Source: Clostridia bacterium (lineage in GTDB: Bacteria > Bacillota > Clostridia > Christensenellales > UBA1242). Taken from it: a DNA stretch of 61,236 nt. Made by a program: the position numbers and the translations under genes. The stretch's first letter is position 1; every line of letters starts with the position of its first letter. Under the pieces are notes generated by a model, which worked only from the letters and a program-made list of their open reading frames with translations, was not told the DNA's origin and searched no databases. Location of the stretch: NCBI GenBank assembly GCA_017625505.1, contig JAGAKV010000008.1, forward strand, positions 1 to 61,236, given 5' to 3'. Positions 10,337 through 14,656 of this stretch are shown one piece after another.

Positions 10337-11077
10337 TTATATTTCAAAATAGTGGTCACTAGTCTCAAAAACAAATCCTGCTGATTTTGCAGCTTTGTTT
10401 GACCTTATGTTATCATTATCACATACCCAATACACATTTTTATCTTTTCTTTGACAACGTAATAAAAATGCGTTGGTTAGTTTTTTAGCATAACCTAAAC
10501 CTTGAAATTTATCATCTATCCAAATATTAGCACCAAGACTATCTTTAAGACTATATTCACTTAAACAAAATCCAACAACCTCATCATTAATAACTAATGC
10601 TACACCAACACCTGTTTTAAAAAAGTCTTTCATATTTGTGTAGGAATAAAGTTCATCTATTATTAAATTTGAATTTTTATAATTTTTCATCATAAATTCT
10701 GGAGTTATTTCCACTATATGTTCATCTTCAATATAATTAATATCTTTTCTAACATCGAAAATATATGAATTGATTTGTTTATCTATTAATCTATCAGAAA
10801 GTTTTGATTTGAGAAATGAACACCATTTGTTATCTGGCACATACAAATATTGTGGTGAACTTAAATCTTTTAAGTAGGAAACCAATTGTTCGCCATTTTC
10901 TTTTGAAAAATTACCGCCAACAAATATACTTAGTCCCCAAGATAGTATCAAGCCATCATTATTTACTAGATCTGTCGCTTTGCCTTGTTTTCTTTGTAAA
11001 AGTGATTGTATTAAGTTTGGATAAATGAAATAATCATATAAATATAAATCATTCTCTTTTAAAATTCTGTTTTCCAT
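10337..11077 (-). CDS. GNAT-family N-acetyltransferase with an N-terminal extra domain (ZmaR-like architecture)
   Basis: C-terminal acetyl-CoA region IWIDDKFQGLGYAKKLTNAFL...IRSNKAAKSAGF. Confidence 0.65.
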   Translation of the reverse strand: MENRILKENDLYLYDYFIYPNLIQSLLQRKQGKATDLVNNDGLILSWGLSIFVGGNFSKENGEQLVSYLKDLSSPQYLYVPDNKWCSFLKSKLSDRLIDKQINSYIFDVRKDINYIEDEHIVEITPEFMMKNYKNSNLIIDELYSYTNMKDFFKTGVGVALVINDEVVGFCLSEYSLKDSLGANIWIDDKFQGLGYAKKLTNAFLLRCQRKDKNVYWVCDNDNIRSNKAAKSAGFVFETSDHYFEI

Positions 11078-11123: not shown

Positions 11124-11807
11124 TTATATTGATTTTGTGTCGCATTTTAAGCTTTTTATTAATCCAAAATGTTGTTCAACTTGCGCCAATGTATTTTCAA
11201 CTGTGGAATTTTCATTTCTTTCAATATAAAAGAATTGGCTATTTTTTATTGTTTGACATCTTTCTTCGTTAACTATTCTAAGAACTTCATTGCAATTTTG
11301 TTTTGCTTTTGTTGGATTTGTTGAAGAATGAATAAATCTATTAAACCCAACATGGCTAGGTCTATGACAATAATCATCAATAATGTTGTCATTATTTTCT
11401 CTCATTAAAAACACAACTTGATTTGGATTTGCAAGCTTTTCAGCTTCTTCAACAGTTAAGTGTAAATCACAAACAACTATTTGATTTTTAGATAATTCCA
11501 CCAAATCTGCCAAAATAAATTCCATTTGTTCAGCTGAATTGTCTTTTAACCATTGAACATACTCATTTGTGTCACGCAAGAAAAACTCATCTGCATCTTT
11601 AAAAGTTTTATTCATATTAGGTTGGTATGTTGGATTTGAAAGTTTTTTATGTTCATCAAATCTTTCATCAACATCATAACGAAGCCAACCATATTTTTCT
11701 GCCAATGCTTTAGATATTGTTGTTTTACCACCTGTGGCAGTTCCTGTTATAAAATATACATTTTTAAATTGTTCTTTTTTATATTTTTCTAAATATACTT
11801 TTCCCAA
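11124..11807 (-). CDS. P-loop kinase-like protein (small-molecule/nucleotide kinase fold)
   Basis: Walker A ITGTATGGKTTISKAL. About 227 aa. No other motif was recognised. Confidence 0.55.
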   Translation of the reverse strand: MGKVYLEKYKKEQFKNVYFITGTATGGKTTISKALAEKYGWLRYDVDERFDEHKKLSNPTYQPNMNKTFKDADEFFLRDTNEYVQWLKDNSAEQMEFILADLVELSKNQIVVCDLHLTVEEAEKLANPNQVVFLMRENNDNIIDDYCHRPSHVGFNRFIHSSTNPTKAKQNCNEVLRIVNEERCQTIKNSQFFYIERNENSTVENTLAQVEQHFGLIKSLKCDTKSI

Positions 11808-11818
11808 AATTTATCTCC

Positions 11819-13474
11819 TTAAATTTTATTTATTTTTCCATTCTTCAACTCATAAACATTATCAAAACAATCATAGTTGTTAAGTTTGTGTGCTATAACA
11901 AATATTGTCTTGTGTTGTTTTAATTCGGTTAAAGTTTTAAATAATTTTGTTTGATTTTCGCTGTCCAACGCACTTGTTGGCTCATCTAAACATATAATTT
12001 TGCTATTCTTTAAAATTGCTCTTGCAATTTCAATTCTTTGTTTTTGTCCACCACTAAGATTTGTTCCGTTTTCAGTTAAAATAGTGTTGTATTCATTTTC
12101 AAAAGAAATAATTTCTTCGTGAATGTTTGCGAGTTTGCAAGCATTTTCTATTTCTTCAAGAGTAGCGTTTGGTTTAACAATCTTGATGTTGTTTAAAATT
12201 GTATCACTAAATATAAATGGTTCTTGGTTTACAATACAAACATTTTCTCTAAATGATTTTTCAGCAATGTCGTTTATATCAACATCATCAAAGAATATTT
12301 TACCATTATCAACTTCATATAGTTTAGATAACAACAAAAACAATGTTGATTTACCACTTCCAGAACTGCCAACCAAAACATTCAAACTATTAGGCTGTAA
12401 TTCAAGGTTGATATTATCTAAAATCTTCTTTTCATCATAAGCAAAAGTTAAATTTTTAATTGTTATTTTACCTTGATTGAAAGTATTTGTAAATTCTCCA
12501 AATTCTTCTTTGTTTGGTGTGTCAATTATCTCTAAAACTCTTTTTGCGTAATAATTGCCATTAACATAATAGCCTTTAAGTTTAGAGAAAAATCCAACCG
12601 TGTCATACATCAGACTCTTATAATTAAATATTAAAAGTAATGTAACAATTTCGATTTGACCAGTAGGCAGCAGCCACAACATACTCATAAACACTAAGAC
12701 ACTATCTATAACCCATTGAGTGTATGTTGCAATTCTTGAAATAAGTTCAAATTTAGTGTTTTTCTTATAAGTTTTTTCAAGTAAGTCATTATTTGATTTA
12801 CTCATTTTATTGTTAATTTCTGCCTTAACTCCAAAACCTTTTATATCTTTAATTCCATATATAATTTCATTAAATTCAGAGTTCGCTTTTTCAGTAGATT
12901 TCTTAACCAACTCTAAATTTTTAAGGTCTGCATTTACTTTTATGCTTTCAATCATAAATAATAGTGCAACACCAATGGTAAAGAATAATCCACATTGCCA
13001 GCTTAATATATAGATTATAACTAAAAATCCAAAATTTGTGAACACATCAACGAGAGTTCCTGCAACATTCCCAACAAAGGCGCTAATTTCGTTAACATCA
13101 TCATTTAATCTCTCTAAATAGTATCCTGAACCATTTTCTTTGATTGCTGAATATTTTGTGTTTAATAAATTTGATACTATATCTTTTTTAATATCAGCAG
13201 ATACTTTCTTTGAAAGAGTATAAGCAAATTTACTCCATAAAAACCAGTTAATGTGATGAATAGTAACAACAGCTAAAACATATATTGTAAATCTAATAGC
13301 AGTTTTTGCAATTCCGCTAGTTATTCCAATAAGTTGTTCGCTCATAAGATATGACATAAACACACCAGCAGAACTTGCTATAAGCATTACAGAGAGTAAT
13401 GCAATAATTAATTTTAAGTGCTTTTTGTAATAAGGTTTAAAAGCGCATAAATTCTTAAATCTTTTTAAAAACAT
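11819..13474 (-). CDS. ABC exporter, fused permease-ATPase half transporter
   Basis: N-terminal multi-TM domain. GSSGSGKST Walker A, LSGGQKQRIEIARAIL signature, ICLDEPTSALD Walker B. Confidence 0.88.
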   Translation of the reverse strand: MFLKRFKNLCAFKPYYKKHLKLIIALLSVMLIASSAGVFMSYLMSEQLIGITSGIAKTAIRFTIYVLAVVTIHHINWFLWSKFAYTLSKKVSADIKKDIVSNLLNTKYSAIKENGSGYYLERLNDDVNEISAFVGNVAGTLVDVFTNFGFLVIIYILSWQCGLFFTIGVALLFMIESIKVNADLKNLELVKKSTEKANSEFNEIIYGIKDIKGFGVKAEINNKMSKSNNDLLEKTYKKNTKFELISRIATYTQWVIDSVLVFMSMLWLLPTGQIEIVTLLLIFNYKSLMYDTVGFFSKLKGYYVNGNYYAKRVLEIIDTPNKEEFGEFTNTFNQGKITIKNLTFAYDEKKILDNINLELQPNSLNVLVGSSGSGKSTLFLLLSKLYEVDNGKIFFDDVDINDIAEKSFRENVCIVNQEPFIFSDTILNNIKIVKPNATLEEIENACKLANIHEEIISFENEYNTILTENGTNLSGGQKQRIEIARAILKNSKIICLDEPTSALDSENQTKLFKTLTELKQHKTIFVIAHKLNNYDCFDNVYELKNGKINKI

Positions 13475-13532
13475 AATATTCTCCTTAAATTTATATTTCG
13501 GCGGGGAATATAAAACTAAGGAACTTTTATCT

Positions 13533-13574
13533 AAAAAACAAAAGAAAAAAGTCCACCCAAAATCTAAGTGAACT
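13533..13574 (-). terminator. Second terminator-like hairpin inside the leader of the ABC operon
   Basis: Minus-strand AGTTCAC / GTGGACT stem (one G-U pair), 11-nt loop, long U-run. Confidence 0.4.
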
Positions 13575-13611
13575 TTATCTTTATATATAACAATGCAATT
13601 ACAAAATCAAT

Positions 13612-13683
13612 CACAAAAAATAGATAAAACCCACTAGTTTTATATGCTTACTACACATAAAACTAGCCGAGTAGTTTTATGTG
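13612..13683 (-). promoter_or_regulatory. Three-arm mutually exclusive hairpin element (antiterminator/terminator candidate)
   Basis: Minus-strand arm1 CACATAAAACTA, arm2 TAGTTTTATGTG, arm3 CATATAAAACTAG. 1:2 is a perfect 12 bp. 2:3 is 13 bp with one G-U, followed by UGGGUUUUAUCUAUUUUUUG. Confidence 0.5.
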
Positions 13684-13684
13684 G

Positions 13685-13717
13685 CTATTTAGTTCTTAAT
13701 TTCATAATTGTACACAT
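13685..13717 (-). CDS. Candidate 10-codon leader peptide MCTIMKLRTK
   Basis: AAAGGAGA SD lies 7 nt before the ATG. The TAG stop lies 1 nt before arm1 of the hairpin element. Confidence 0.45.
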   Translation of the reverse strand: MCTIMKLRTK

Positions 13718-13741
13718 AATATTTCTCCTTTTGATGTTCAT

Positions 13742-13770
13742 ATATTAGCAAAATTTAAATCAAAAGTCAA
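13742..13770 (-). promoter_or_regulatory. Strong promoter of the leader/ABC operon
   Basis: Minus strand: TTGACT, 17-nt spacer, TGcTAATAT extended -10. Confidence 0.6.
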
Positions 13771-13801
13771 TACCTTTTTTAAAAAAATATTTTCTCTCAT
13801 A

Positions 13802-14656
13802 TTAGTGTATAATTTCAACCTCTTCTTCAAGCAGCACATTAAATTTGCTTTGGACTTCCTCTTTGCAATAATCAATCAAATATTTGACATCGTCAAATGT
13901 TGCGTTTGCTTCGTTGATGATGAAATTGGCGTGCTTTTGTGAAATGATAGCTCCGCCTTTTCTTTTGCCTTTAAGGCCGCACTGATCTATCAGGTTACCT
14001 GCGCTGTAACCTTCTGGATTTTTAAAAACACAGCCACAGCTGAAACCCTTTGGCTGAATCTCGTTGCGATATAAGATAGCCTCATGATAGCTTTTGGCAA
14101 CAGTTTCGCTGTTTTGTTGTTTAAGTCTAAAGGTTGCCGAAATGATTATACCGGAGGGGAGTTGTGTGTGCCGGTATGAGTAAACGCACTGTGACTTTTT
14201 TAGAGTAATAATTTTATCCTCATGCAACATTGTGATTTTCTCAAGATGAGAGAACGCATCCTGCCCCATAAAGGAGGCGTTATTTTTAATGAAGCCACCA
14301 ACTGATGCAGGGATTGTGCAGGCTTTTTCTATACCAATTAATCCAGCTTCTTTGCATGAGATGTAAAGCTGTGAAAGTGGCGTATTTGAGGAAACTGTTA
14401 GAAAATCGCCATTTATTTTGATTTTTTTATGCATTTTGCTTAAATTTATACAAATTTTTGCTGTTTGAGGCGAAATTAAAAGATTGCTCCCTTTTCCAAT
14501 GACGAAATAACTGAGGTTGAGTTTGTTAAATTTCTCTAATAAATATTTGCACTGTCCAATTGTTTTTGGGGAAACGACAACAGGCAGGTTCCCTTGCGTT
14601 TTGTATGTGGTCAAGTCCTTGATTGGAACATCTAAATCATATTCTATTTTGCTCAT
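13802..14656 (-). CDS. murB: UDP-N-acetylenolpyruvoylglucosamine reductase
   Basis: FAD-binding VIGKGSNLL. C-terminal GGAIISQKHANFIIN. 284 aa. Confidence 0.88.
   Translation of the reverse strand: MSKIEYDLDVPIKDLTTYKTQGNLPVVVSPKTIGQCKYLLEKFNKLNLSYFVIGKGSNLLISPQTAKICINLSKMHKKIKINGDFLTVSSNTPLSQLYISCKEAGLIGIEKACTIPASVGGFIKNNASFMGQDAFSHLEKITMLHEDKIITLKKSQCVYSYRHTQLPSGIIISATFRLKQQNSETVAKSYHEAILYRNEIQPKGFSCGCVFKNPEGYSAGNLIDQCGLKGKRKGGAIISQKHANFIINEANATFDDVKYLIDYCKEEVQSKFNVLLEEEVEIIH

Follow-up and report, generated by a model that had tools for sequence, protein, structure and literature searches.

A probable ribosome-stalling attenuator with a multi-helix relay upstream of an ABC exporter operon in uncultured gut Clostridia

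How is an exporter operon switched when a leader of some 260 nt, with a tiny open reading frame (ORF) and several mutually complementary arms, lies ahead of it? The question is raised by the window analysed here, a stretch of 61,236 nt of contig JAGAKV010000008.1 from a Clostridia bacterium (assembly GCA_017625505.1). On its minus strand the leader follows murB, whose stop codon lies at 13802, and precedes genes for an ATP-binding cassette (ABC) exporter, a P-loop kinase-like protein and a GNAT protein. A first description made from the letters of this DNA, here called the sequence-only reading, had proposed a leader-peptide attenuator with the logic of drug-inducible cat/erm/ABC-F leaders. 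In that proposal, a ribosome stalled early leaves arm 1 free, 1:2 pairing follows and the operon is ON, while a ribosome at the stop codon favours 2:3 pairing and the operon is OFF. Comparison of homologous leaders and constrained folding support both this type of control, in its erm/mef/ABC-F form, and its direction. We conclude that the leader probably works by ribosome stalling, belongs with the '+x+' attenuators of erm(D)/erm(K)/mef/msr and acts on transcription termination as well as on translation initiation. Two assignments change in the process: the 2:3 hairpin gives up its role as regulated terminator to a hairpin further downstream (T2), and the 1:2 hairpin gives up its role as direct antiterminator to a duplex between the A3 end plus A4 and the T2 5' arm. 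Beyond what had been described before, we find this antiterminator, a helix that closes over the ORF, a hairpin that sequesters the exporter Shine-Dalgarno (SD) sequence together with its long-range competitor, and an ErmDL-like K-L-R motif in the leader peptide.

Reading the region 13300-13950 on the minus strand, we recover the promoter, the SD sequence, the 10-codon ORF, the 1-nt gap and the three arms, all at the positions given in the sequence-only reading.

13742..13770, minus strand: promoter found by consensus scan, with -35 box TTGACT (13770-13765), 17-nt spacer and extended -10 box TGcTAATAT (13750-13742)
13724..13732, minus strand: leader SD sequence AAAGGAGA (AAAAGGAGA), 6 nt ahead of the ATG, read directly
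13685..13717, minus strand: leader ORF from ATG to TAG, 10 codons plus TAG, MCTIMKLRTK*, with K6-L7-R8 as +x+ motif in the ErmDL register
13672..13683, minus strand: arm A1, CACATAAAACTA (CACAUAAAACUA), complementary to A2 at 12/12 positions
13654..13665 (13654..13667 with the 5' GC), minus strand: arm A2, TAGTTTTATGTG; (GC)UAGUUUUAUGUG; its partner is A1 or A3
13634..13646, minus strand: arm A3, CATATAAAACTAG
13622..13646, minus strand: arms A3+A4, CAUAUAAAACUAG UG GGUUUUAUCU, the central switching strand with three alternative partner sets

The promoter scores 9/12 consensus matches plus the TG extension. The spacing of the -35 box and the TGn-extended -10 box is identical in all homologous leaders, and the DNA upstream of the boxes diverges. 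An A/T-rich upstream element with TTGACW and a TG-extended -10 box (13742-13790, minus strand) matches dozens of loci in the genus (L005-L022); the promoter apparently follows a generic consensus for strong promoters in this lineage. The leader SD is kept in most of the 18 aligned leaders and is weakest in L031. A single spacer nucleotide lies between the ORF stop codon and A1. The perfect 12-bp pairing claimed for A1:A2 stands, with CTCGGC (RNA CUCGGC) as loop, as does the 13-nt A2:A3 pairing, which the repeat search returns as 92% Watson-Crick with one G-U pair as the single exception. The tract TGGGTTTTATCTATTTTTTG (UGGGUUUUAUCUAUUUUUUG) comes after A3. The A3+A4 strand can pair with A2 and A1 (a rod), with the T2 5' arm (the antiterminator) or with a downstream element, B3/C1. 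Within 1.2 kb we find four terminator-like sites, against 0.4 expected from shuffles, and the 266-nt leader folds with z = -6.2 relative to dinucleotide shuffles. A scan of 13000-14200 against Rfam 15 at E <= 10 gives no family and two sub-threshold chance matches only.

The search for the same leader before homologous operons, proposed in the sequence-only reading, yields a family of about 18 distinct leaders. A DNA search in the genus finds one clear homolog, in genome G005, which is 77% identical and has different DNA upstream, and retrieval anchored on the orthologs of the ABC protein leads to 12 loci. With two covariance models built from the leaders, the element is detected in 21/401 genomes of the family, spread over 12 genera. 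This family comprises small-genome, Christensenellales-like gut Clostridia, and the counts cover this one family. A covariance-model search of 401 genomes sampled across the order gives no real match (one hit, L077, is a false positive), a re-search at genus level finds no further leader, and no leader match is found in the plasmid and phage collections. A pattern scan of metagenomes returns 52 stretches, one of which is a real leader. Within its own genus the leader is present in G000 and G005 only, and in G005 murB lies on another contig; the arms are thus not simply the murB terminator. The leader cassette is accessory. At the G005 locus, the stretch ahead of the leader (L004:1380-1500) shows no relation to murB and has a comparatively high GC content (...GACTTCGTCGCGCTTGGTTCGGCTTCCGATAATAT); a structured RNA gene or some other gene might end there. 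The window genome has about 1.04 Mb in 59 contigs, and the related records are metagenome-assembled genomes of uncultured Clostridia or Christensenella-like bacteria from animal guts.

The genes behind the leaders are of several types. An ABC exporter follows at 10 loci, the P-loop kinase-like gene follows directly at L056 (with GNAT next), L062 and L071, a MATE efflux pump follows at L061, and ABC-F proteins follow at L066 and L067. The L066 protein scores 408.9 bits and lies above the 380-bit cut-off of the NCBIfam model 'ribosomal protection-like ABC-F'.

Is the short ORF conserved as a peptide? Across 18 leaders the core reads I-[L/M]-K-L-[R/K], in the following versions.

MCTIMKLRTK, MCIIMKLRTK, MIVILKLRNK, MCIILKLRTK, MFTILKLRTK, MIILKLKIN
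MICCILKLRNK, MIILKLRIK, MYSVMKLRTK, MCVVRKLRTK, MCTILKLRTE, MFTIFKLRIM
MYSIMKLRTE, MFCLERFRINK, MYNIVLRIRLI, MVQTELRTK, MKIIIKLTTK, MKKIVNKQI

A +x+ motif ([KR]-x-[KR]) is present in 16/18 of them, as K-L-R, K-L-K, R-F-R or R-I-R, and in L061 only as R7-T8-K9. Its codons vary synonymously (AAA/AAG, UUA/UUG, and AGA to CGU for the second Arg in L071), and R/K exchanges are conservative, e.g. AGA to AAA. The distance from the middle residue of the motif to A1 is fixed at 16-18 nt although the length of the N-terminus varies. In MCTIMKLR the register is M1, M5, +6, L7, +8, as in ErmDL/MefAL/MsrAL (M-x-x-x-M-R-L-R). A more distant leader, L034, encodes a peptide of 20 codons, MCTILKLKKYSLNANVFYLD. 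At this locus (L034:2760-3000), ahead of a 45%-identical ABC ortholog, the N-terminal 8 residues are the same and the downstream arms are entirely different; the antiterminator strand there overlaps the last ORF codons and the stop codon.

Which hairpin terminates transcription, and which strand prevents it? The second terminator-like hairpin noted further along the leader is present, at 13576..13548 with a U-tract behind it, and the remaining elements of the leader are arranged around it as follows.

13684..13711, minus strand: closing helix P0/P1, 5' strand, from ORF codon 3 to the stop codon plus 1 nt; coincides with what a ribosome that has L7 in its P site would cover
13595..13623, minus strand: closing helix P1/P0, 3' strand, pairing CUAUUU:AAAUAG (last codon plus stop) and, through seg5 GUGAUUGAUUUUGUAAUUGC, the K-L-R codons; includes the U-run 13620-13615, with seg5 immediately behind it
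13564..13580, minus strand: B1, AGAUAAAGUUCACUUAG, the antiterminator 3' strand, which is also the T2 5' arm and the first loop bases
13533..13576, minus strand: terminator T2, stem 13576-13548 with -10.3 kcal/mol, U-tract UUUCUUUUGUUUUUU at 13547-13533, found by terminator scan and search
13507..13533, minus strand: B3+C1, UAGAUAAAAGUUCCUUAGUUUUAUAUU, holding the anti-SD CCUU (13521-13518); its partner is C2/SD or A3+A4
13472..13522, minus strand: SD-sequestering hairpin, arms 13522-13507 and 13497-13482, 16 nt and 88% complementary, with SD AAGGAG at 13486-13481 and ATG at 13474-13472

A hairpin homologous to T2 and followed by a U-run is found in 18/18 leaders, and the U-tract after A2:A3 is missing in L031, L032, L068, L069 and L071. 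We conclude from this difference that T2 is the conserved and probably the regulated terminator. By the same comparison, the chief role of A2:A3 would be that of an anti-antiterminator; as an extra terminator or pause site it would be weak at best. The antiterminator strand CUAGUGGGUUUUAUCU (13637-13622), which consists of the 3' end of A3 and of A4, can form 16 bp with AGAUAAAGUUCAC-UUAG (13580-13564). In the window this duplex has -13.5 kcal/mol, which 2/200 shuffles reach, and the family mean is z = -2.6. The cells of its alignment columns are paired in 83%, compared with 37-50% for slid controls, and compensatory changes occur in L027 (A-U to G-C) and L067 (U-A to G-C). In the L027 lineage one position is changed in four strands, from A to G in A1, U to C in A2, A to G in A3 and U to C in the T2 loop. 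This is direct evidence for the chain A1:A2 / A2:A3 / A3-A4:B1 / B1:B2. Covariation between A1 and A2 is found in the L027 and L033 lineages; the covariation statistics are modest because they come from only about 18 related sequences. In the L026 leader, upstream of the ABC gene at 777, an insertion about 150 nt into the leader lies between a B1-like hairpin without U-run (AGAUAAAGUUCACAAAGGAAUGUGAACU) and the real T2, so that the T2 5'-arm motif is duplicated.

The unconstrained minimum free energy (MFE) fold of nearly all 18 leaders is a rod composed of P0, P1 and A1:A4 with A2:A3 at the apex. The same folds contain the T2 hairpin with its U-tract and a hairpin of the anti-SD CCUU with the exporter SD. 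P0/P1 is part of the rod in nearly all leaders. Its duplex has -17.3 kcal/mol in the window (RNAduplex), no shuffle out of 200 is as good, and the family mean is z = -2.8. The helix covaries, with GGCA:UGCU instead in L030 and L033; in L067 the peptide is unrelated and the ORF nevertheless pairs with its own seg5.

Further downstream, nearly all leaders fold locally into the SD-sequestering hairpin. A repeat search identifies B3+C1 as a direct repeat, diverged in sequence, of B1 and its loop. It also shows that A3 matches C1, which forms the 5' arm of the SD hairpin, with perfect complementarity over 11 nt, and that A4 does so with B3 over 9 nt. The composite A3A4:B3C1 duplex has -20.2 kcal/mol in the window with 0/200 shuffles as good, and -15 to -21 kcal/mol across the leaders. 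In 13/18 leaders it is better than each of 200 shuffles, and the mean is z = -3.7. At least 10 positions have changed on both sides in a table that rests on free duplex registers and is therefore biased towards pairing. The duplex requires the whole of A3 to be free and is thus possible only while A1 holds A2. It takes the place of a pairing between the T2 3' arm and B3 that was considered as a way to free the SD and rejected, with a mean z of -0.2 across the homologs.

The two hairpin loops of the leader also contain complementary bases. UCGGC in the A1:A2 loop (13666-13670, minus strand) can pair with GCCGA, which lies in the SD-hairpin loop (13498-13502, minus strand), and these are the sole GC-rich motifs of the leader. 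The pairing is found in most leaders, extends to 8 bp in L061 and L068, is altered on both sides in L062 (UUGGC/GCCAA) and is lost on both sides in L030. The two loops could be engaged in a kissing-loop contact.

How would a ribosome on the ORF change this fold? The folding energies of the alternative structures, which the sequence-only reading had proposed to compute, are -11.9 kcal/mol for isolated A1:A2 (-12.5 kcal/mol on the A1–A3 stretch), -17.3 kcal/mol for A2:A3, -3.9 kcal/mol for A3:A4 and -10.3 kcal/mol for T2. Across all 18 leaders A1:A2 and A2:A3 are near iso-energetic, and the barriers for refolding from 1:2 to 2:3 are estimated at 8-18 kcal/mol. The A1:A2 hairpin, which forms first, is therefore a kinetic trap unless it is unwound. 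A ribosome with L7 in the P site covers ORF nt 7-33, exactly the P0/P1 5' strand, and leaves a gap of 1-2 nt to A1; once at the stop codon, it reaches into A1. We calculated constrained partition functions for the transcript as it stands just before the T2 3' arm is made, and read out the probability that the antiterminator (AT) core is formed. In 14/16 leaders this probability is 0.00 if no ribosome is present. Its mean rises to 0.59-0.64 for a P site on codons 4-7 (-6 to -3, counted from the last sense codon) and is 0.32-0.37 for one on the last three codons. For L034 the MFE structure itself switches: a ribosome placed at L7 gives the antiterminator, and an occupied stop codon or an empty ORF gives the terminator. 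In the window, the rod is favoured over A1:A2 plus AT by 12.6 kcal/mol without ribosome and by about 4-6 kcal/mol with ribosome. A generic measure of B1 pairing with upstream sequence is noisy as a result of spurious AU pairing.

The mechanism that we favour builds on the elements themselves, on their conservation and covariation, on the association with resistance-type genes and on thermodynamic plausibility. From these we infer that the ORF is translated, that ribosomes stall at K-L-R and that folding is under kinetic control; the +x+ motif and its register, by analogy, point to a macrolide or ketolide as inducer. The promoter at 13770-13742 would drive the leader of about 260 nt. Without a ribosome, the RNA would zip into the rod (P0/P1, A1:A4, A2:A3) and sequester CUAGUGGGUUUUAUCU, T2 would form and the operon would be OFF; in any RNA that is read through without a stall, the exporter SD would be kept locked in its hairpin. 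A ribosome that reaches the stop codon would melt A1 and allow A2:A3, the anti-antiterminator, to form; after release of the ribosome the rod would close, again giving OFF. Some pausing or weak termination may come from A2:A3, whose U-tract is interrupted. If a drug-bound ribosome is arrested while L7 occupies its P site, it would block P0/P1 and halt 1-2 nt before A1. In this arrested state A1:A2 would persist and trap A2, leaving A3/A4 free, and the free A3 end and A4 would pair with the T2 5' arm, so that RNA polymerase reads through T2 and the operon is ON. A3+A4 would then pair with the duplicated B3/C1, drawing the anti-SD off the SD and exposing it.

Several observations weigh against this mechanism. 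Two leaders that are linked to ABC-F genes have no +x+ motif (MKIIIKLTTK, MKKIVNKQI). The MTHSM-type N-terminus (M-T-(H/A)-S-M) is not kept: we find MCTIM, MFTIL or MIIL, and only M1 and sometimes M5 are common. The ORF nucleotides also pair with seg5, and part of the ORF conservation could be at the level of RNA rather than peptide. Most arms are so conserved that the formal covariation counts in the first alignment are weak. At equilibrium, once the T2 3' arm exists, T2 is formed with a probability of about 0.9 or higher in most leaders at any position of the ribosome; likewise the SD hairpin stays favoured and SD accessibility is unchanged by ribosome position. A purely thermodynamic switch is rejected on the basis of this insensitivity of the T2 and SD hairpin equilibria, from which it follows that the switch must be kinetic, as in classical attenuators; the kinetic folding order is assumed in the modelled scheme.

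The most credible competing explanation, itself unlikely, keeps the elements and inverts the polarity in the manner of MsrDL. Arrest at the ORF end or stop codon would mask A1, A2:A3 would form and the free A4 alone would pair with the T2 5' arm to give ON, and the resting OFF state would be A1:A2 plus A3:A4 plus T2. For leaders that have A4 this eight-segment chain is self-consistent, MsrDL sets a precedent for arrest at a stop codon beside a terminator, and R8-T9-K10 is a second +x+ motif in the window. Yet L069 lacks A4 and L068 has a vestigial A4-like 5-bp stem without U-run, and both keep the ORF, A1-A3 and T2. The antiterminator and the SD anti-sequestor use A3, either its 3' end or the whole of it, and covary with it, whereas A3 would be locked in A2:A3. 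The last residue is not a conserved K/R and can be E, N, M or I, and the modelled antiterminator probability drops when the ribosome occupies the last three codons. Also unlikely, and ranked behind this, is the exact scheme of the sequence-only reading, with 2:3 and the U-rich tract as regulated terminator, 1:2 as direct antiterminator and T2 as back-up. It would draw on the strength of the 2:3 hairpin, which the terminator scan flags, and on erm(K) with its two tandem terminators. But GGG stands between the stem and the first U's, the U-run is largely explained by P1 pairing with the last codon and stop, the tract is absent from the five leaders named above while T2 is universal, and RNA that has passed 2:3 would still face T2.

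We give still less credit to a sensor of general translation capacity, of Lys/Leu/Arg aminoacyl-tRNA supply or of another translation stress in place of drug-specific arrest. Any delay on codons 4-7 is predicted to favour the antiterminator, and bmrB responds to several drug classes and to rare codons; against such a sensor, the cargo consists of efflux, ribosome-protection and modification-type genes and not of amino-acid biosynthesis genes, and +x+ is kept through different codons and different middle residues. It is very improbable that the ORF is untranslated and the region is a murB terminator, a structured non-coding RNA or a protein-binding leader. The position directly downstream of murB and the participation of the ORF nucleotides in an RNA helix would fit such a role, but the leader has its own conserved promoter and SD, lies away from murB in other genomes (in G005 on a different contig), shows conserved frame and length with synonymous changes, and matches no Rfam family. 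The arrest-driven attenuator that reads through T2 remains the explanation that we prefer.

What does the leader control in the window? Three genes follow it.

11819..13474, minus strand: gene 1, ABC exporter, a 551-aa MsbA/LmrA-type half-transporter with Pfam domains ABC_membrane and ABC_tran
11124-11807, minus strand: gene 2, P-loop kinase-like protein of 227 aa with weak AAA_18/SKI matches
10337-11077, minus strand: gene 3, GNAT protein of 246 aa

The NCBIfam matches of the exporter lie well under every equivalog cut-off, and none of the three proteins reaches the cut-off of a characterised resistance family. In none of the other genomes do exporter and kinase-like gene share a cassette: the exporter is the only gene behind its leader, and the kinase-like gene, whether or not GNAT accompanies it, is preceded by a separate one. 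In the window operon, 11 nt lie between the ABC stop codon and the TTG start of the kinase-like gene, and the stop codon overlaps ...AAAUUUAAGGAGA (11800-11830, minus strand), a sequence that resembles the 3' end of a leader (C2 plus SD). Such a leader remnant between the genes, together with the separate cassettes elsewhere, indicates that the window operon is a local fusion of two cassettes, and it looks like a deletion fusion.

Homologs of the kinase-like protein number about 900 in gut Clostridia and Lachnospiraceae and are named 'shikimate kinase' or 'AAA family ATPase' in the source records. In many of them, with 360-370 aa, a GNAT domain is fused to the C-terminus, which suggests that kinase-like protein and GNAT work as a pair. 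A sequence search of the PDB with the kinase-like protein gives no informative match, and a Lachnospiraceae homolog (L130) has no such leader. In another lineage (L133:2380-2500), a GAGGAGG SD and a 10-codon ORF, MVAFLRTRNI* with R-T-R as +x+, lie upstream of the kinase-GNAT fusion P0106 (2501-3613). Alternative pairings AACUAU / AAAUAGUUUU / AAAACUAUUU adjoin the SD of the fusion gene there, and TetR, beta-lactamase-fold and MerR/GyrI-like genes are neighbours. As judged from its sequence, this locus places an independent +x+ leader in front of a member of the same protein family.

Nearest among known systems stand the MRLR-type leaders of mef/msr and erm(D)/erm(K), joined by bmrB-bmrCD where an ABC exporter is concerned. 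Mef(E)L is MTASMRLR, Msr(A)L is MTASMRLK and ErmKL/ErmDL are MTHA/SMRLRFPTLNQ; mef(E)/mel and erm(K), the latter with two terminators, are under transcription attenuation (PMC4335068). The leaders Mef(E)L/MefAL (mef(E)/mel, msrD) and Msr(A)L of streptococci and staphylococci share with the window leader an upstream ORF (uORF) preceded by an SD, the pattern M-x-x-x-M-(R/K)-L-(R/K) and +x+ at residues 6-8. They also share ribosome-mediated attenuation through several inverted repeats and an intrinsic terminator, and control of efflux and ABC-F genes (PMC4335068). In contrast to them, the window leader shows no nucleotide similarity, its ORF runs two codons beyond the motif, and it has AU-rich arm repeats, a longer relay and an added SD-sequestering hairpin. 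Cargo (MsbA-like exporter, MATE pump, uncharacterised kinase-like/GNAT proteins) and host (uncultured gut Clostridia) differ as well.

In ErmDL, arrest occurs on R6-L7-R8 while the P site holds L7 and the A site R8; no substitute other than Lys is tolerated, and the MTHSM N-terminus contributes to erythromycin-dependent arrest (PMC8298421). The K6-L7-R8 site of the window matches this site of ErmDL/ErmKL of erm(D)/erm(K) in Bacillus, including the tolerated Lys (PMC8298421). ErmDL has 14 residues and begins with MTHSM, whereas the N-terminus of the window family is hydrophobic (MCTIM, MFTIL), and the gene regulated by erm(D)/erm(K) leaders encodes a methyltransferase. Similar to the window leader, bmrB of bmrCD in Bacillus subtilis is a ribosome-mediated attenuator of an ABC multidrug exporter with at least three alternative stem-loops, and translation of the uORF is required there (PMC4191407). 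It differs in a much longer peptide, a terminator within the coding region, the lack of +x+ and a heterodimeric transporter (PMC4191407).

In the ABC-F leaders MsrDL (of msrD) and those of vmlR and lmo0919, a tiny uORF ends beside an RNA structure that decides on an intrinsic terminator, and vmlR joins transcriptional and translational attenuation. MsrDL arrests at its own stop codon and obstructs the terminator directly, whereas arrest in the window is predicted three codons before the stop and would act via a relay of helices. The leader described here is real but probably a familiar kind of antibiotic-sensing switch, its principle known from erm, mef/msr, bmrCD and vmlR. What appears new is a leader family outside Rfam, with a longer relay, a putative dual output and new cargo in an uncultured gut lineage.

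A further-reaching view, which we consider less likely than not, is as follows. The leader would be a portable macrolide/ketolide-sensing cassette of herbivore-gut, Christensenellales-like bacteria, its cargo would be new resistance determinants with the kinase-like/GNAT proteins as a new drug-modifying family, and A3+A4 would control both termination and translation by way of duplicated pairing sites. If this is true, the MsbA-like half-transporter and above all the kinase-like/GNAT pair are marked as resistance determinants against ribosome-targeting antibiotics. Apart from this view, arrest-motif leader peptides are reliable markers of genes that are switched on under ribosome poisoning. 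The favoured mechanism also makes the leader a compact model of a multi-helix relay, in which the footprint of the stalled ribosome coincides with a strand of the closing helix and a single strand of RNA appears to govern termination and access to the SD. The family links one putative sensor to four gene types, ABC exporter, ABC-F ribosome-protection protein, MATE and the widespread, uncharacterised kinase-like gene with or without GNAT, in abundant uncultured commensals of the livestock gut, and it offers a concrete, testable way into macrolide-class resistance that may have gone unrecognised in the gut resistome.

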